From contig CAYOCN010000001.1 of NCBI GenBank assembly GCA_964402525.1, forward strand, positions 18,162 through 44,016: 25,855 nt of DNA, given 5' to 3'. Under the pieces are notes generated by a model that was given only the letters and a program-made list of their open reading frames with translations, was not told the origin of the DNA and did not search any database. Source of the stretch: an uncultured Candidatus Saccharibacteria bacterium (GTDB lineage: Bacteria > Patescibacteriota > WWE3 > UBA101185 > UBA10185). Both the position numbers and the translations under genes were made by a program. Below, in pieces: positions 3,520 through 11,761 of the stretch (position 1 is the first letter of the stretch; every line of letters starts with the position of its first letter).

Positions 3520-5250
3520 TTATATTGTTAATGCGTGCACAATTATAAGAGGTGATCTCCCGGTTTCTTTATACAAAAATTTATCGAGTTCATTTTCAAC
3601 TTTCTTTTTTTGAAAATTCCAATCTTTATTTCTGCCGTCTTGCTTGTTTAAAACTTTAGTTATTAACTTTTTAGATCTGTTCATTAATTCTTGAGATTCA
3701 CTAAAATAAACAAATCCACGTGTTATAACTTCTGCTTTATCCGCTAATAGCTTACCACCTTTAACTTGAGGAACAACCACCACTAAAACGCCATCGTTAG
3801 ATAAAATCTCACGATCTTTTACCACAACAGGATTTATTTTTTGAGTGGTACCTGTATTTATATAAACAGGTGCAGTTTCAACAGAATAGCTTTTTTCAGC
3901 TTTCCCGTTATGGAAATCAACACCTTCACCTTCTAAACATTCAAAAACAGATTCTTTTGGAAATCCCAAACTACCTACTAAATTTTTATAAGCACGCATC
4001 TTTGTTACAGTACCACCTAAAGGAATAAAGTATTTGGGTTTAACAAGTTGAATCATTCTAGTAATGTCTTCTTTAGCCGCATGACCTGAAACGTGTAAAT
4101 TGTTTTGGATGGCGCTGTAAATAACTTCACACCCAGCTAATGTTAAAGCATCTGTTAACTTACCAACAGTAATATCAGATCCTGGAGGCGCGGGGTCACC
4201 TGAAAATACAACCATCGCATTATCTTCCAATGAAATGTCCTTATTTTCATCGCGACTTAATCTTTCTAATGAAGAGCCAACTTGTCCGTAACAACCAGCA
4301 ATAATATAAACTAAGGTACTTTGATCATAAGACACAGATTCTTTTTCGGGAACAAAAACATCGTCAGGAAAAGGTAAGTACGCAAGTTTACGAGCAATTT
4401 TTACCATTTGTTCAATGGATCTACCACTAGCAACTACTTTTCTACCACATCTTATAGCAGCAGAAGCTACCTGGTTCATACGAGAAATATTAGATGACAT
4501 TGTAGTTACAAAAATCTGTCTTTTACCAGCGCGTTGAAATAATTCATCAAAAGTACTATCCAAAGTCTTTTCTGATTTTGTGTGACCCTCTGTGGTTACT
4601 AATAAACAGTCAGACAGTAAGCAAGTCACACCTTCTTTTCCAAATCTTTCTATTTTATCCACTTCTATCGGTTTATCTAAAACAGGAGTGTCATCGAATT
4701 TATATTCAGCAATGTGTAAAAACAAACCTTCGGGAGTTTTAATAGCATAACCAGTGGTTTCTGGAATTGAGTGGTTTACACGAATTCCCGACACTTTAAA
4801 ATTACCTAAAGTTATTTCTGGGGTGTTACCATCAATTAAATTAAATTTAACTTTTTGTAATAAACTTTTATCAAAAGAACGATCCTCTAACATTACCTTA
4901 ACAAACTCTTGAACCAATTCTCCAGAATAAAGACTAATTTCTCCAACATCTTGAAGTAAATAAGGCAAAGCACCAATATGATCTTCATGAGCATGAGTGA
5001 TAAATAAACCTCTTATTTTATGTTTGTTTTCAACTAAGTAGGAAAAATCTGGAATTACGATATCGACTCCGGGCATATCAAAAATATCAGGAAAACCAAT
5101 ACCACAATCAACTAAAATAATATCGTTACCGTATTCATAAACGGTAAGATTTTTATTTACGTTTTCAGTACCACCCAAAGTTCTAATAGTTAGTTTGGAA
5201 CCTGAATCATACAAAGTATTTATATTTTCTTTACTAGTCGAATTATTCAT
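3520..5250 (-). CDS. rnj: Ribonuclease J (beta-CASP metallo-beta-lactamase) with atypical motifs IV and C
   Basis: THAHEDHIGALP, VNHSIPE, LLSD, HVSGH, C-terminal SNDGV...EVITRGFVY. Start placed at the ATG at 5250 rather than the TTG at 5259. Confidence 0.95.
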   Translation of the reverse strand: MNNSTSKENINTLYDSGSKLTIRTLGGTENVNKNLTVYEYGNDIILVDCGIGFPDIFDMPGVDIVIPDFSYLVENKHKIRGLFITHAHEDHIGALPYLLQDVGEISLYSGELVQEFVKVMLEDRSFDKSLLQKVKFNLIDGNTPEITLGNFKVSGIRVNHSIPETTGYAIKTPEGLFLHIAEYKFDDTPVLDKPIEVDKIERFGKEGVTCLLSDCLLVTTEGHTKSEKTLDSTFDELFQRAGKRQIFVTTMSSNISRMNQVASAAIRCGRKVVASGRSIEQMVKIARKLAYLPFPDDVFVPEKESVSYDQSTLVYIIAGCYGQVGSSLERLSRDENKDISLEDNAMVVFSGDPAPPGSDITVGKLTDALTLAGCEVIYSAIQNNLHVSGHAAKEDITRMIQLVKPKYFIPLGGTVTKMRAYKNLVGSLGFPKESVFECLEGEGVDFHNGKAEKSYSVETAPVYINTGTTQKINPVVVKDREILSNDGVLVVVVPQVKGGKLLADKAEVITRGFVYFSESQELMNRSKKLITKVLNKQDGRNKDWNFQKKKVENELDKFLYKETGRSPLIIVHALTI

Positions 5251-5261
5251 AAGCAGCAATA

Positions 5262-5786
5262 TTAGATAATTAAACCACCTTCCTTGAGTTTATCCAAGAA
5301 TTTTAGGTTTAAATCCCTTTTATTAACTTGGTAACTTTTCCCAAGAAGGAATTTTGCAGAGGTGTAATCAGCCCAGAAAAACTCATCAAACTTTGTTTCT
5401 TTTATGTCTATTTCTTCCGATTTAACAGCTAAAACATAAAGAAAATACTTTTTACCAGTCATATTTATGGCAACACCCTCATCTGTTTGAACATCTCGTT
5501 CACCATAAAACTTTTTGTTCATTGTAACTTCGCCGTCACCCAAATAAATATAATTTGTATCACAACCATCTGAAAATGTTTTTCCAAGTTCTTCCGTTAA
5601 TTCACGTCTTATAGCATCTGCGGGGGTTTCATTGTTTTCAACTCCACCTTGGGGTAAAAGCCATAATTTATATTCTTTTTTAAAAAGTAATAATAATTTG
5701 TTTTCGTGAACACAAAAACAAACAACTCCGGGTCTAAACCCTTTTGTACGTATTTCATCTAATTCTTTTAAAGTTGGTTCTTTCAT
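5262..5786 (-). CDS. Nudix hydrolase, RppH/NudH-like (putative RNA 5' pyrophosphohydrolase)
   Basis: Complete Nudix box GGVENNETPADAIRRELTEELG. FRPGV, WLLPQGG and EFFW resemble RppH FRPNV, WQFPQGG and EFDGWRW. ATGA overlap with the UDG stop. Confidence 0.8.
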   Translation of the reverse strand: MKEPTLKELDEIRTKGFRPGVVCFCVHENKLLLLFKKEYKLWLLPQGGVENNETPADAIRRELTEELGKTFSDGCDTNYIYLGDGEVTMNKKFYGERDVQTDEGVAINMTGKKYFLYVLAVKSEEIDIKETKFDEFFWADYTSAKFLLGKSYQVNKRDLNLKFLDKLKEGGLII

Positions 5787-6358
5787 ATATTAATACTTTC
5801 AAGTATAGACGGAATTCTCAAAAAATCTTCCTTTAAGGTTTTTAACATATCACCATTTCTTAACGCGGCTGCAGGATGGTATACCGGATAAACGTTATAA
5901 ACACCTTGTGTGGTTTCTACTTTAATCGTATGTCCATGATCTCTTGTAATTTTCCCATCTTTATAAAAATAGTTCATAGAAAATCTACCAAGAGTTACCA
6001 CAAGTTTTGGTTTTATAATATTTAATTGCATTGTTAAATATGGTTCACACAAAGAAAGTTCATCAGGTAAAGGGTCACGATTTTCAGGTGGACGGTGCTT
6101 TATGATATTACCGATCCAAACATCTTCTCGTTTTAAATTAATAACTTCTAATAATTTTTGTAAAAGCATCCCTGCACGACCAACAAAAGGTCTACCAGTT
6201 GCATCCTCAGTAGCACCAGGAGCCTCACCAATGAATACAATTTTGGAATCTATATTACCTTCCCCTGGAACAGAATTTTTAGCGTTTTCACAAAGTCGAC
6301 ATTTTTTACAAAGTTTCACATTATTTTCAATTTGATTTAATAATTCCAGTTTCGTCAT
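5783..6358 (-). CDS. Family-4 uracil-DNA glycosylase (4Fe-4S type)
   Basis: CxxC near N-terminus, GEGN..SKIVFIGEAPG, GRPFVGRAG, KHRPPENRDP, LVVTLGRFS, YHPAAALR. ATGA overlap with the upstream Lon-like gene. Confidence 0.95.
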   Translation of the reverse strand: MTKLELLNQIENNVKLCKKCRLCENAKNSVPGEGNIDSKIVFIGEAPGATEDATGRPFVGRAGMLLQKLLEVINLKREDVWIGNIIKHRPPENRDPLPDELSLCEPYLTMQLNIIKPKLVVTLGRFSMNYFYKDGKITRDHGHTIKVETTQGVYNVYPVYHPAAALRNGDMLKTLKEDFLRIPSILESINI

Positions 6359-7416
6359 TTTGGTAAGTAATATTTAAGATTTTCAGCAGTTATATAAACA
6401 CTCTTAGATTTACCTTCAACAATTTCTTTAGCCACTTTTCTACATAAAGATTCTAAAGTTCTACCCAAACTTCTAATACCGGTATCAAAACCAAAAGGTC
6501 TAACAATTCCTGGCCAAAGATTTGGATCGATTTGTAATTCTTCCGCAGTAAGACCGGCACCTTCAATAATTTTGGGAAATAAATATTTTTGAGCAATTAC
6601 CAGTTTTTCTTCATCGGTGTAAGAAGGCATTTTTATAACTTCCATTCTATCCATTAAAGCGGTTGATAAGGTACCTGTGTTGTTAGCAGAACAAATAAAC
6701 AAACAGTCAGATAAATCAACAGGAAAATCTATGTAGTGGTCTCTAAAGGAACTATTTTGGTTGGGGTCTAATATTTCAAGCAAAACCGCCATAATATCAG
6801 AACGTAATCCTTTTTCACCACTAGCTTTTTCTATTTCATCCAATAGAATTAAGGGGTTTTTCACTTTAGACTTGATTAGCGCTTTAATTATTTGCCCAGG
6901 TTCTGCATCCGGAAAAGCTTTGCTTTCACCTCTAAGCTCTAAGGTAGACCCCAAACCTCCCATGGCAATTCTCCCGAATTCTCTTCCTAAAGCCTCCGCC
7001 ACAGAAATAGCCAGTGTAGTTTTACCAACTCCTTGCAAACCCACTAATAGTAAAACTGGTGAACGGGATATGGCGTCTTTCCCTCGACGTTTTAATAAAA
7101 TTAACGAGGAAAGGTACTCAAGAATTCTATCTTTAACGTAACCCATTCCATAGTGATTTTTATCTAAAAATTGCTTAGCCTTCTCTAAATCTAAAATATC
7201 TTCAGTTTTATTTTGCCAAGGAATTGAAGTAACAACATCTATATAACGTGATAACGTGTCAAATTCAGAGGCATAATGGCCCAACTTGGCCATTCTATTC
7301 AAACGATCGATCATTTGATTCAGTCGCTCAGAAAGATCTTCCGGCAATCCTGTGGTGTCTTTAACCTTTTGAGATAGTGTGTCTAGTTCTTTAAATATAA
7401 ATTCTTCTTGTTGCAT
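6355..7416 (-). CDS. Lon-family AAA+ protein lacking both the Lon N-domain and the Ser-Lys protease domain
   Basis: YIDVVTSIPW, LDKNHYGMGYVKDRILEYL, GLQGVGKTT, NPLILLDEIEK, LLEILDPNQNSSFRDHY, LMDRMEVI, YTDEEKLVIAQKYL, GIRSLGR. Stops at 353 aa. Confidence 0.92.
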   Translation of the reverse strand: MQQEEFIFKELDTLSQKVKDTTGLPEDLSERLNQMIDRLNRMAKLGHYASEFDTLSRYIDVVTSIPWQNKTEDILDLEKAKQFLDKNHYGMGYVKDRILEYLSSLILLKRRGKDAISRSPVLLLVGLQGVGKTTLAISVAEALGREFGRIAMGGLGSTLELRGESKAFPDAEPGQIIKALIKSKVKNPLILLDEIEKASGEKGLRSDIMAVLLEILDPNQNSSFRDHYIDFPVDLSDCLFICSANNTGTLSTALMDRMEVIKMPSYTDEEKLVIAQKYLFPKIIEGAGLTAEELQIDPNLWPGIVRPFGFDTGIRSLGRTLESLCRKVAKEIVEGKSKSVYITAENLKYYLPK

Positions 7417-7422
7417 AAAAGT

Positions 7423-7431
7423 AAGATATCA
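7423..7431 (-). promoter_or_regulatory. Extended -10-like TGATATCTT, 6 nt before the Lon-like ATG (leaderless candidate)
   Basis: Minus strand TGA-TATCTT-ACTTTT-ATG; the TGA is also the stop of the upstream gene. Confidence 0.45.
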
Positions 7432-8412
7432 CAAAACCAAGTAATCCTGCTTACCAGAAAAGTATGAGGTTAATAAATCTTTAACAAATGTAGATGAAAT
7501 ATCACCAACTTTTTTGTTTAAATCTTCTAAAATACTTTTACCGGTAGCAGTCATGGATATTAATAGGGTTGTTCCTTCAACATTAGTTTTATCACTTAAC
7601 AAAGAGTATTTGGAATTAAGAGCCAAACTTCTTTCAATTTTACTTTTATAGGCAGCCGATTGGGTTAAAACATCTTTGTTATTACTTATCAAAATAACTG
7701 AATCAAATTTTTTAACAAAAAAATCCTTGGAGGTAGTTGATATGGAAGACTTTTGAATATCTTCAGGAATAATCAATAAACCCCATGTAGTTGCAGTGGC
7801 AGTTTTTGAAACAAAAAAGGCAAAAGGTTTAAATTTTTCAGCAGCAACAAAATCAATAAGCGATTTATTCTTTTCAAATAGATTTGTAAATAATTCAGAA
7901 AATTTTTGAAAATCAAATCCTTCAACATATAAATCAGCTCCGTAAGGAACGTACTCTGCCAAAGCAGAAAACCCAAAAACATTACATTTCTGCAACTCTT
8001 CAATTAAACACACTGGTTTTTTGGAAGTTACAACTTCCTTTGGTTGCTCCACTTTAGTTTCTACAGAGGATTCTTTTGTGGGTACAATAACCCCAGAACC
8101 TTTTAATACAGGTTTATCTAAAAAGGCATTTAAAACGTTTTTACCATAGACAGAAGCAACCACTATAACAATAACAATTAATAAAATTCCAATAGCTATC
8201 AAAACTTTTTTTATATTTAATTTTTTTAGATCAAGAGACATTTTTGTAACAGCTTTTGGAGGAATCGGAATAATAGGAACAGTTGTAATTTTTTGAATTA
8301 TTTCAGGAGAGGTAACATCCTTAATATCGAGTTTTTGAGAACAGGATGAGCAAAAATAAAAATCATAAGAACCAAGTTTAGAATTACAATTTGGGCAGAA
8401 TCTGTTAGGCAT
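7429..8412 (-). CDS. Hypothetical membrane protein: N-terminal CxxC-CxxC zinc ribbon, Pro-rich linker, one TM, extracytoplasmic domain
   Basis: CPNC...CSSC; IAIGILLIVIVIVVASVY TM; TATAAT box 8 nt before ATG. Confidence 0.85.
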   Translation of the reverse strand: MPNRFCPNCNSKLGSYDFYFCSSCSQKLDIKDVTSPEIIQKITTVPIIPIPPKAVTKMSLDLKKLNIKKVLIAIGILLIVIVIVVASVYGKNVLNAFLDKPVLKGSGVIVPTKESSVETKVEQPKEVVTSKKPVCLIEELQKCNVFGFSALAEYVPYGADLYVEGFDFQKFSELFTNLFEKNKSLIDFVAAEKFKPFAFFVSKTATATTWGLLIIPEDIQKSSISTTSKDFFVKKFDSVILISNNKDVLTQSAAYKSKIERSLALNSKYSLLSDKTNVEGTTLLISMTATGKSILEDLNKKVGDISSTFVKDLLTSYFSGKQDYLVL

Positions 8413-8479: not shown

Positions 8480-10597
8480 TTATTGATCGGATTGTGGTGC
8501 TTCTAAGGCTTTTTTCGATAAGGCAATCTTGCCTTCTCTTTCTACTCTCAAAACCTTAACTTTAACAACATCGCCCATTTTGAACCACTCGTTGATATTT
8601 TCAACATAACGATCTGCTACTTCACTAATGTGTAATAAACCAGTTTTACCAGGTAAGATTTCAACAATGGCGCCAAAGTCTAATAAATCAATGACTGTAC
8701 CTTCATAAATTTCACCAGGTTTTACCTCGTGTGTAATACCTTCAACAATTTTTAGAGCTTCTTGAGCTTTTTCAATATCGGCACAAGAAATAACCACGGT
8801 ACCATCTTCTTCAATGGAAATTTCAGCGCCAGTTCTTTCTTGAATTTCTTTTATTGTTTTACCGCCACTACCTATTACCATACCAATTTTATCAGGATCA
8901 ATTTTTGTGGTTACAACTTTAGGTGCATACTTTGAGACAGTTTCTCTGGAAGTTGAAATAACTTTTTGCATTTCATCTAAAATAAATAATCTACCATCGC
9001 GTGATTGATTGATTACTTCTTCTAAAACGTGCATTGGCATTCCTTTTACCTTCATATCACATTGAATTGCAGTAACACCTGTTTTTGTACCAGTCATCTT
9101 AAAGTCCAAGAATCCACCACCATCTTCTTCACCAGATAAATCGGTTAATACTTTGTAATTGGTAAATTCATCGTCTGAAACAATTAATCCCATTGCAACA
9201 CCACCAACCATATCTTTAAGTGGAACACCGGCATCCATTAGTGCAAGGGTAGCACCACAAGTGGAAGCCATTGAAGACGAACCATTTGAAGAAACTGTTT
9301 CCGATACCAAAATAATAGTATATGGAAATTCTTTTTGTATTGGCATTACAGGTTTTAAACCTTTTTCAGCAATCATTCCGTGACCTATCTCACGACCTCT
9401 TGGGGAACCCATTTTTCCAACTTCACCAGTTGAATAAGGTGGGAAGTTGTAATAGTGCATAAATCTCTTGGATCTCTCACCATACATATCTTGAACTAAA
9501 AGTTCCATTGAGGGTGAACCTAATGTGGCAACAGTTAAAGCTTGGGTTGTCCCACGTGTGAATAAAGCACTTCCATGAGTTCTTGGAAGTAAATTGACCT
9601 TACCTGATATTGGTCTAACTTCTGTTAAACCTCTACCATCTAAACGTTTGTTTTCATCAAGTACAACGTGTCTAATAGATTCCTTTTCGAGATCCTCTAT
9701 AGCACGCACTATATCAACTTTTGTGTAAACACCATCAAACTTAGCAACAACCTCATCACGTAATAAAATCTTTTGTGCGTCAAGATCATGCTTACTTAAA
9801 GCCTGTTTAGTTAGTGCATCAACTTTATCCTTAGCCGCTTCGGAGACATCTTTTAAAAGCGTCTCGCCTAAAGCTCTTGATACATAAGTATATTTTTTTA
9901 TTCCGGGATTTAATTCATTAGCAAAATCTTCAATTAAAGCTAAAAGTGGATCAACGCTACCACGACCAAAATTTATTGCTTCCAATATTTTTGTTTCTGG
10001 TAATACGTTTGCACCAGCTTCAACAGCTAAAAATCTTTTTTCTTTTCCAACAAAGGAAACAATCATTTCAAGATCACTTTTGTCATGTAAAACTTCTCTT
10101 GAAGGACATAGCACAAGTTTTCCATCAACTAATCCAACTCTGGCAGTGGCCATAGGACCATACCAAGGAATATTTGAGGCGTGTAAAGCAGCAGAAACTG
10201 CAATCATGCTGGTAAATTCAGCGTCAGCTTCTTCATCAACAGATAATACAGTGGCTATTACTTGAACATCATCCATATAATCTTTTGGAAATAGTGGTCT
10301 TATTGCGTGGTCAATTGCTCTTTGAGCAATAATTGCATCATCAGTACCTCTTCCATCTCTTTTTACAAATCTTGAACTTTTGATGGAACCACTGGCGTAC
10401 AATTTTTCTTCATAATTTACGGTAAGTGGGAAAAAATCCTTATCTGGATTTGCATTTCCGGACACTGCTGTTACTAAAACAACTGTTTCACCATAGGTGG
10501 CTTTTACGGCCATAGTTGCTCTTAAAGCAATTTCTCCGGTTTCAAGCACCAAATTCTTTCCTGCAAAGGAAATTTCTTTTTTTACATATTTATTCAT
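8480..10597 (-). CDS. pnp: Polyribonucleotide nucleotidyltransferase (PNPase)
   Basis: DFFPLTVNYEEK, RLDGR, PRTHGSALFTRG, REIGHG, SNGSSSMAS, DFK, KH (IGSGGKTIKEI) and S1 (FGAIVEILPGKTGLLHISE) domains. Confidence 0.99.
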   Translation of the reverse strand: MNKYVKKEISFAGKNLVLETGEIALRATMAVKATYGETVVLVTAVSGNANPDKDFFPLTVNYEEKLYASGSIKSSRFVKRDGRGTDDAIIAQRAIDHAIRPLFPKDYMDDVQVIATVLSVDEEADAEFTSMIAVSAALHASNIPWYGPMATARVGLVDGKLVLCPSREVLHDKSDLEMIVSFVGKEKRFLAVEAGANVLPETKILEAINFGRGSVDPLLALIEDFANELNPGIKKYTYVSRALGETLLKDVSEAAKDKVDALTKQALSKHDLDAQKILLRDEVVAKFDGVYTKVDIVRAIEDLEKESIRHVVLDENKRLDGRGLTEVRPISGKVNLLPRTHGSALFTRGTTQALTVATLGSPSMELLVQDMYGERSKRFMHYYNFPPYSTGEVGKMGSPRGREIGHGMIAEKGLKPVMPIQKEFPYTIILVSETVSSNGSSSMASTCGATLALMDAGVPLKDMVGGVAMGLIVSDDEFTNYKVLTDLSGEEDGGGFLDFKMTGTKTGVTAIQCDMKVKGMPMHVLEEVINQSRDGRLFILDEMQKVISTSRETVSKYAPKVVTTKIDPDKIGMVIGSGGKTIKEIQERTGAEISIEEDGTVVISCADIEKAQEALKIVEGITHEVKPGEIYEGTVIDLLDFGAIVEILPGKTGLLHISEVADRYVENINEWFKMGDVVKVKVLRVEREGKIALSKKALEAPQSDQ

Positions 10598-10746: not shown

Positions 10747-11016
10747 TTACTTATTAAACTCAACTTTTTCAAGTAAAGCTTGGTATCTTTCGGCATCTTT
10801 ATTCTTCAAGTAAGCTAAAAGGCGTCTTCTTTTATTGACCATTTGAAGTAGTCCTCTTCTAGAGTGATTATCCTTTTTGTGAGCTTTTAGGTGATCTGAT
10901 AATTTGGCAATTCTTTCACTTAATAAAGCCACTTGTACTTCTGGAGAACCAGTATCCGAAGCGTGTAACCCACTAGTTTTAACTATTTTAGATTTTACTG
11001 CTTTTTCTAATGCCAT
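10747..11016 (-). CDS. rpsO: 30S ribosomal protein S15
   Basis: [16 protein letters not shown]...[29 protein letters not shown]; start placed at the ATG at 11016 (89 aa). Confidence 0.99.
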
Positions 11017-11026
11017 AAACAACCGA

Positions 11027-11046
11027 AATCTTAACAAACTAAGATT
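11027..11046 (-). promoter_or_regulatory. 8-bp hairpin 10 nt upstream of the rpsO ATG (possible S15 autoregulatory leader or weak terminator)
   Basis: Minus RNA AAUCUUAG(UUUG)UUAAGAUU, flanked on both sides by GGUUG. Confidence 0.35.
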
Positions 11047-11059
11047 AAAAAATCAACCT

Positions 11060-11761
11060 TTATTCTACGTTACGGCACAAAACACCGGTCAATAGGGCTT
11101 TTGCAGCCTTTTTGTTAATTTTTAAATCCCAAAAGTTAGATTTTTGCAACACTAGCAATGAAAGACTGTCTGCGTATTCATCGATAATGTTAACAAGACC
11201 AAATTTAGTATTTTTTTGTACGTTATCTATATTTATAATTTGAGATCCAGCAAACTCTTGAGCAAGATCAGTATATACCTGTCCAAAATCCCCTAATTCT
11301 TGAGCACCGACTGCAAGTATAAGATCATAATCAAAACCTTTTATAGAGGCTCCTACACGGCTTAAATCAAAGTTTTTGTCTATAGGACGAACCTTTAGAT
11401 ATAAAACATCCTTTTCAGTTGAATAATGAACTTTGGCGGCTGGGGTATTGGAATAATCAATAGAAACCATGAGTTCTCGTTCTGCAATATCGGCTGTCAC
11501 ATCTTCAGGAGCAATTAAATCAGCACAACCATCGGGAAGTTGGCCGGTATATACAAAACTCACATCTTTACCTTTTTCCTTCAACATGTGGTATAAACCC
11601 ACACCTGCAGAAAACGCATCTTTTCCCGCTATTTTAGAAGGAAATATAGCTATTCTTTTAGCACCTTCTACTAATTCAAAAAATCTTACATCACTATTTG
11701 ATTTAAAGCTTGTTGTGACGTCTGTATATTCAGTTGTGTTTTGCATTGTGTGTTCGTTCAT
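11060..11761 (-). CDS. Degenerate DHH/NrnA-like protein (N-terminal domain only, metal ligands lost)
   Basis: AKRIAIF...KDAFSAGVGLYHML, DLILAVGA, IINIDNV, SLSLLV, AAKALLTGV follow the DHH motif order. Occupies the usual nrnA slot after infB. Alternative start at 11746. Confidence 0.75.
   Translation of the reverse strand: MNEHTMQNTTEYTDVTTSFKSNSDVRFFELVEGAKRIAIFPSKIAGKDAFSAGVGLYHMLKEKGKDVSFVYTGQLPDGCADLIAPEDVTADIAERELMVSIDYSNTPAAKVHYSTEKDVLYLKVRPIDKNFDLSRVGASIKGFDYDLILAVGAQELGDFGQVYTDLAQEFAGSQIINIDNVQKNTKFGLVNIIDEYADSLSLLVLQKSNFWDLKINKKAAKALLTGVLCRNVE

Follow-up and report, generated by a model that had tools for sequence, protein, structure and literature searches.

Within a 25,855-nucleotide (nt) stretch of DNA from an uncultured Candidatus Saccharibacteria bacterium (GenBank assembly GCA_964402525.1, contig CAYOCN010000001.1, positions 18,162 to 44,016; hereafter the window, meaning the whole stretch analysed), we identified a gene for a 353-amino-acid (aa) protein that is almost certainly a stand-alone ATPase derived from the motor of the protease LonA and, as far as its sequence and those of its relatives can tell, a real, functional and very conserved one. 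The observations behind this identification are the domain content of the protein, its intact reading frame, its membership of a separate clade, its distribution, its conservation, its invariant catalytic residues and the lack of a Lon protease domain. As the most likely mechanism, we propose that the protein may assemble into rings and remodel its clients without proteolysis, through a substrate-contact surface that has been rebuilt; the case for this is about evenly poised.

The protein is built from a three-helix bundle, an AAA+ large subdomain and a Lon lid, and has in its bundle and lid the parts that mark a Lon-type AAA+ module. Pfam places AAA at residues 122-261 and Lon_lid at residues 287-339, the other matches being limited to overlapping generic P-loop and AAA families; neither Lon_C (the S16 Ser-Lys protease domain) nor the N-terminal domain LON_substr_bdg (PF02190) was matched by Pfam in the 353 residues. 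The NCBIfam Lon model TIGR00763 is matched only at positions 254-571 of its 795, with a score of 332 bits that lies below the curated cut-off of 608 bits for a whole LonA. Sequence matches in the PDB at E-values of 1e-76 to 1e-68 are all Lon proteases. More specifically, residues 12-351 align to residues 252-579 of Escherichia coli Lon (6u5z, 784 aa), a span that begins in the helical linker and closes with the ATPase module, and the C-terminus (...ENLKYYLPK) aligns near residue 579. The AlphaFold2 model, computed from 64 sequences of the family, has a predicted local distance difference test (pLDDT) score of 91.9 and fits Lon ATPase modules with template modelling (TM) scores of 0.85-0.90. 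The protein therefore falls short of a LonA protease in its lack of S16 and N-terminal domains, in its score and, as described below, in its pore-loop pair. An initial annotation of the window, made from the letters alone, had described a stand-alone Lon AAA+ module without protease domain, and Pfam, TIGR00763 and the structure alignment all agree with that description. Its statement that the protein begins at the motif YIDVVTSIPW was wrong, since this motif is residues 58-67 and completes the third helix, the whole bundle being residues ~9-64.

The same annotation had noted that the stop of the gene is coupled to the start of a uracil-DNA glycosylase (UDG) gene, with no protease half following. 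This is indeed what the sequence holds: the two genes share the letters ATGA, in which the TGA of the ATPase and the ATG of the UDG gene overlap, and the frame read past the stop gives five further codons before a TAA. When the Lon match was extended beyond the end of the ATPase, two TGA and one TAA were counted. As an alternative to a remodeller, one half of a split Lon had been suggested, which would require the protease domain to be encoded elsewhere. The domain boundary does fall exactly at the linker between AAA+ module and protease, and nothing else is in favour of this explanation. Searches of the window's genome (727 kb in 129 contigs, 91% complete) with the Lon_C and LON_substr_bdg profiles revealed no match to the LON N-domain anywhere, no full-length Lon and no free protease domain; only the look-alikes RadA (21 bits) and a ComM/YifB-type Mg-chelatase-like ATPase (22-23 bits) appeared in place of a genuine Lon_C, real examples of which score 170-230 bits. 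Likewise, no genuine Lon_C was found in 61 genomes of the window's class, where the best score was 33.5 bits, in open reading frames (ORFs) of RadA or ComM size. Because a complete LonA stands alongside the short protein in 36 Patescibacteria as well, we consider a split Lon very improbable.

The residues required for an active AAA+ site are fully retained. Walker A Lys132, Walker B Asp193 and Glu194, sensor-1 Asn245, the Arg finger Arg257 and sensor-2 Arg315 are invariant among 64 members of the clade, and together they make up the residue set of the AAA+ HCLR clade from the Walker A Lys to the sensor-2 Arg. The protein shares with Bacillus subtilis LonA (3m6a) the motifs LLDEIEK at Walker B, DRMEVI at the Arg finger and GIRSL at sensor 2. 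Accordingly, the earlier observation that Walker A, Walker B and the sensor/Arg-finger region are kept applies to the window's protein and to the clade alike. Given that the Arg finger acts in trans, its invariance suggests an oligomeric, Lon-like ring active site.

The protein departs from LonA in the residues that contact substrate. In Yersinia pestis Lon, it is Tyr398 and Ile399 of pore loop 1 that grip the substrate, and the tandem Arg395-Arg396 and Glu458 contribute to keeping these two in position; Y456 and E458 are hairpin residues, and Met284, described along with Y294 and W297, lines the three-helix-bundle pore above the channel (PMC7239648). In the pore loop of the ATPase we find RGESKAFPDAEPG, compared to RGHRRTYVGAMPG in B. 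subtilis LonA (3m6a), and the Tyr-Val/Ile pair of LonA has become Phe-Pro. Each substitution that the initial annotation listed for this loop is present in this alignment, as is the Walker A sequence GLQGVGKT instead of GPPGVGKT. Across the stand-alone clade, the Tyr position is occupied by F in 18%, H in 12% and S in 9% of members, compared to Y in 97% of 117 full-length LonA modules; the Ile position is P in 48% (V/I in 92% of LonA) and the first tandem-Arg position S in 65% (R in 95% of LonA). The window's own family mostly has Phe or Tyr at the aromatic site, and other lineages of the clade have Asn, Ile, Val, Leu, His and others. The claim that the aromatic is kept thus holds for the window's protein and its family-level relatives and fails for the clade as a whole.

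The surroundings of the pore loop are conserved in the clade, including the flanking residues Glu172 (93%; Met or Leu in LonA), Pro173, Gly174 and Lys178 (95%). A pre-sensor-1 beta-hairpin is present, the FRDHYIDFPVDLS segment aligning to the LonA hairpin, with Tyr228 (Y/F in 99%) and Asp230 (at least 90%) kept. Features specific to the clade are xD[IV]M in the second loop, after Walker B, where LonA has RGDP[SA], RP[LF]G[FY]D[AS]GIR before sensor 2 where LonA has YTREAGVR, Leu-Gln in Walker A where LonA has Pro-Pro, and insertions relative to LonA at residues 45-47 (three residues) and 111-116. Directly after the first insertion stands Tyr48, which is Y in 71% and F in 7% of the clade at a position that is variable in LonA. 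Counted from the Tyr58/Trp61 pair, which corresponds to Tyr294/Trp297 of Y. pestis Lon, Tyr48 aligns to Met284; the Trp61 position itself is Val61 in the window's protein and W in 67% of the clade. We hypothesize that the loop carrying Tyr48 may be a new substrate-contact site.

To describe the distribution of the protein, 301 Patescibacteria were searched with the Lon model. The stand-alone form, matching model positions ~253-572, was present in 74 genomes (about one quarter) and full-length LonA in 59: both forms occur in 36 genomes, LonA only in 23, the stand-alone form only in 38 and neither in 204. Among the genomes with the stand-alone form only are every one of the 18 sampled from the window's class and of the 14 sampled from another family (f22). 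Named database members belong to candidate division WWE3 and to the Microgenomates-type Levy-, Shapiro-, Ames-, Davies-, Roizman-, Gottesman- and Beckwith-bacteria.

In a maximum-likelihood tree of 132 ATPase modules, the stand-alone proteins form one clade on a branch of 0.38, with a support of 100 in the Shimodaira-Hasegawa-like approximate likelihood ratio test (SH-aLRT). This clade comprises 65 rows, 60 of them labelled stand-alone, and lies apart from the 67 LonA rows, those of Patescibacterial LonA included. Its internal topology tracks family, order and class, and the clade was again exclusive in a second tree. Judged from these sequences, the ATPase is an old paralogue in one part of the Patescibacteria, vertically inherited at the pnp-rnj locus. 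Since the 132-module tree is unrooted, a clade older than the bacterial LonA radiation and a fast-evolving offshoot both fit it.

Some further occurrences deserve mention. A closed genome with a full-length LonA (G059, C1:555304-556285) has its stand-alone match in two adjoining frames, covering model positions 256-452 and 452-572, which could reflect a frameshift or decay of this copy. Many contigs on which the stand-alone form occurs at 45-53% identity (L110, L111, L114, L116, L117 and others) are labelled 'uncultured Gammaproteobacteria', 'Pseudomonadales' or 'Methanoperedens'; judged from gene content, these look like mis-assigned Patescibacteria bins. The protein atlas also holds other short AAA + Lon_lid clusters in Bacillota and Nucleocytoviricota (giant viruses); Lon-like ATPases lacking a protease may have more than one origin.

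To assess conservation, the window was compared with seven relatives of its own family (f1), using the same genome pairs throughout. Amino-acid identity was 67-78% for the ATPase, 58-69% for PNPase, 63-71% for UDG and 43-59% for RNase J, and the ATPase was more conserved than these three neighbours in seven of seven pairs. Even ribosomal protein S15 (rpsO), at 58-75%, was below the ATPase in six pairs and equal to it in one. In addition, the ATPase has counterparts in more than 120 database clusters, at identities of 72-83%, and nearly all of these are 353-370 aa long.

These data bear directly on the possibility that the gene is a recent truncation or a decaying remnant of Lon, to which we assign next to no probability. 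Nothing speaks in its favour, and it is refuted by the recurrence of the same 353-aa length in more than 100 clusters, the age of the clade, conservation above pnp, udg and rnj in every pair compared and the invariant catalytic residues, in addition to the intact frame. The initial annotation had likewise argued against a pseudogene, and had pointed out that a recent truncation would be indicated if close relatives had a full-length Lon here; we looked for one, and every relative proved to have the short form.

On the minus strand, the genes around the ATPase are arranged in the order nusA, infB, a 233-aa ORF, rpsO, pnp, a zinc-ribbon single-transmembrane gene, the ATPase gene, udg, a Nudix gene, rnj and ftsK (Table 1). 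We compared this neighbourhood with 50 related loci from 26 families. Relative to the ATPase, PNPase is upstream and RNase J downstream in 14 families each, UDG is downstream in eight and FtsK downstream in ten, and this common pnp-rnj position supports the orthology of divergent ATPase members. A promoter and terminator scan gave nothing above chance.

Table 1. Coordinates of the ATPase gene, its sequence elements and its neighbours in the window
Feature	Position	Strand	Remark
Stand-alone Lon-type AAA+ ATPase gene	6355..7416	(-)	intact ORF, 353 aa, ATG start
Three-helix bundle (NTD3H), residues ~9-64	7225..7392	(-)	AlphaFold2 model
Walker A GLQGVGKT, G126-T133	7018..7041	(-)	alignment with LonA
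Pore-loop-1 region RGESKAFPDAEPG, R162-G174	6895..6933	(-)	alignment with LonA
Walker B Asp193-Glu194	6835..6840	(-)	invariant in clade
Sensor-1 Asn245 to Arg finger Arg257	6646..6684	(-)	both invariant
Clade signature RP[LF]G[FY]D[AS]GIR, including sensor-2 Arg315	6472..6498	(-)	clade alignment
RNase J gene (rnj)	3520..5259	(-)	downstream of ATPase
Nudix hydrolase gene	5262..5786	(-)	between udg and rnj, 4-nt overlap with udg
Uracil-DNA glycosylase gene (udg)	5783..6358	(-)	start overlaps ATPase stop
Zinc-ribbon single-transmembrane membrane protein (327 aa)	7429..8412	(-)	upstream, 12 nt before ATPase gene
PNPase gene (pnp)	8480..10597	(-)	upstream of ATPase
rpsO	10747..11037		precedes pnp
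233-aa ORF	11060..11761	(-)	between infB and rpsO

Two of these genes are observations in their own right. The Nudix gene stands outside the conserved array, udg usually running straight into rnj in related loci. The 233-aa ORF has no Pfam match, yet 13 related loci conserve it in the same place; the interval between infB and rpsO is usually occupied by rbfA or truB.

As regards function, the 'ATP-dependent remodeller' of the initial annotation is still the best reading, and we propose the following mechanism for it. The protein would be a self-contained ATPase with a LonA-like ring assembly, in which ATP would be hydrolysed at the inter-subunit sites of the putative ring. The energy would be used to remodel or unfold a restricted set of clients without degrading them, in the manner of chaperone-like Lon. 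Substrate contact would have been rebuilt, the pore-loop-1 Tyr-Val/Ile pair being no longer under selection and a conserved Tyr of the three-helix-bundle loop at the channel entrance, Tyr48, perhaps taking over its role. A precedent for such a remodeller is given by LONP1, to which PMC8368198 ascribes an ATPase-dependent, protease-independent chaperone-like activity. In full-text searches of the literature, we came across no account of a natural Lon AAA+ family without a protease.

Some points weigh against a remodeller of proteins. Synonymous divergence (dS) is saturated at the distances compared, so that our figures describe relative amino-acid conservation only and not the ratio of non-synonymous to synonymous divergence (dN/dS). 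Among the sequencing runs holding the locus, it is present only in DNA runs of a freshwater metagenome. Furthermore, the clade lacks a conserved aromatic in the pore loop, so that polypeptides may not be threaded at all, and the conserved neighbours PNPase, UDG and RNase J are nucleic-acid enzymes, which could point to another class of substrate.

If this last point is followed, the ATPase could be a motor linked to RNA decay or to nucleic acids more generally, working as a degradosome-type accessory of PNPase and RNase J or together with UDG on DNA, and its target would be nucleic acid or ribonucleoprotein, not free proteins. Such a motor would be in keeping with the location of the gene between pnp and rnj in 14 of the 26 families, with an ATPase-udg-rnj block that persists without upstream pnp (f60, f16), with the coupled stops and starts in the window and with the unconserved pore aromatic. 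However, one genome (G023) has the array rpsO-pnp-udg-rnj...ftsK without the ATPase, and in family f22, where all 14 sampled genomes carry the ATPase, the gene sits elsewhere (five loci sampled). In net charge the module is acidic, with a mean of -4.4, and the part that follows the PW motif has an average of -1.4. The order pnp...rnj...ftsK is presumably also that of B. subtilis, and if B. subtilis shares it, the order may just be inherited. The G023 array also weakens the neighbourhood as evidence on function; in four other genomes without the ATPase, pnp has no udg or rnj behind it. Because of the G023 array, the location in f22 and an ordinary DEAD-box helicase in the window's genome, we treat the RNA-decay link as a minority hypothesis and a nucleic-acid motor as unlikely. 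Distinctly unlikely, in our view, is a Lon motor re-purposed into a Lon-derived degradosome or nucleic-acid ATPase, which would have given up its pore-loop-1 grip and would work with PNPase and RNase J or on a non-protein substrate. The idea that the ATPase is the sole candidate RNA-decay ATPase of its genome was rejected, the DEAD-box helicase being present.

Two other explanations start from a partner protein. The ATPase could be part of a membrane-linked machine, acting on the upstream zinc-ribbon single-transmembrane protein or being recruited by it, for extraction or regulation. The two genes are 12 nt apart in the window, a zinc-ribbon/transmembrane protein lies directly upstream in ~10 of the 50 loci (the window's class and f24), and in a further family (f86) other single-transmembrane proteins overlap the ATPase start. 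Conversely, the zinc-ribbon protein is absent in four of ten family- or order-level relatives, including the closest (L031), which has pnp directly upstream; it evolves fast, being only 19-25% identical between family members whose ATPases are 73-75% identical (L036, L032). At best the link is lineage-specific, and we regard a membrane-linked machine as rather improbable; a zinc-ribbon partner as a general feature was rejected on the count of ~10 loci in 50.

The ATPase could instead be an accessory to another protease, passing substrates to ClpP or FtsH or co-assembling with LonA, which we find quite improbable. ClpP, FtsH and a ClpC-like ATPase are encoded in the window's genome, and LonA is present alongside in the 36 genomes mentioned above. 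These three proteins also mean that ordinary ATP-dependent proteolysis is available there without Lon. Nevertheless, the 38 genomes that lack LonA retain the protein unchanged, the second tree places no module of a tandem-AAA+ Lon protease within the stand-alone clade, and no flexible ClpP-docking loop of the [ILV]G[FL] type is evident in the large AAA+ subdomain. The sole [LF]G[FY] tripeptide (PFGFD, residues 307-311) ends a lid helix by sensor 2, and was rejected as a docking tripeptide for its wrong structural place.

The window's own genome also encodes a 718-aa ClpC/ClpB-like protein (L005:124-2277, contig C13), directly upstream of radA. It matches Pfam AAA_lid_9, a second AAA module and D2-small, the first AAA module being unmatched, and its D1 may be degenerate.

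Lon is defined by a motor and a protease on one chain, and here the motor alone has been kept over a very long time. In genomes of ~0.7 Mb that shed nearly all dispensable genes, the ATPase is at least as conserved as the neighbouring ribosomal protein gene, and it has been retained in whole classes that lost the real Lon. It probably serves a core function of Patescibacteria. The family thus constitutes a natural test of the Lon motor without proteolysis, with a bearing on the debate over whether Lon and LONP1 serve as chaperones. Current annotation hides it under 'AAA family ATPase' or, wrongly, 'ATP-dependent Lon protease'.

Related proteins of other architectures were also encountered. A set of metagenomic proteins (P0121, P0124, P0125 and ~35 more representatives) contains two or three tandem Lon-type AAA+ modules, and the three that were scanned with Pfam each have a genuine Lon_C ('double-ring' or 'triple-ring' Lon, 990-1380 aa). 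Clues to fusions from long open frames were set aside, as these were mostly stop-to-stop artefacts. The longer proteins L023 (1078 aa), L026 (529 aa), P0147 and P0152 showed no recognisable extra Pfam domain. In L023 (3274-6507, genome G025), the C-terminal part is a Lon-like AAA+ module that shares 31% identity with the query, and the ~770 N-terminal residues have no Pfam match.

Among known systems, LonA (TIGR00763/MEROPS S16; 3m6a, 6u5z, Y. pestis 6on2, human LONP1) is 35-43% identical to the ATPase over the module. Both have the three-helix bundle, the AAA+ large subdomain with its pre-sensor-1 hairpin, the Lon lid and all ATPase residues, and the ATPase also keeps the Tyr58/Trp61 position and the Tyr228/Asp230 scaffold, which holds pore loop 1 in LonA. 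Unlike LonA, it has neither a LON N-domain nor a Ser-Lys protease domain, it belongs to a separate clade, and it has lost the pore-loop-1 Tyr-Val/Ile pair and the first tandem Arg. Nearly the same extent is found in the laboratory-made AAA+ fragment of E. coli Lon (6n2i), residues 12-351 of the query corresponding to 12-339 of the chain with TM scores of 0.87 (query) and 0.90 (target); 6n2i is an engineered fragment of a protease, whereas the ATPase is the product of a natural, selected gene. As in ClpX and HslU, also of the HCLR clade, the AAA+ motor is encoded apart from any peptidase, but those two dock ClpP or HslV and keep the pore aromatic, whereas for the ATPase neither a partner peptidase nor a docking loop is evident, and the aromatic varies across its clade. 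Finally, LonC of Meiothermus taiwanensis is a Lon relative that has likewise given up one of the two activities, but as the mirror image of the stand-alone ATPase: its AAA-like domain is inactive, and the protease is retained.

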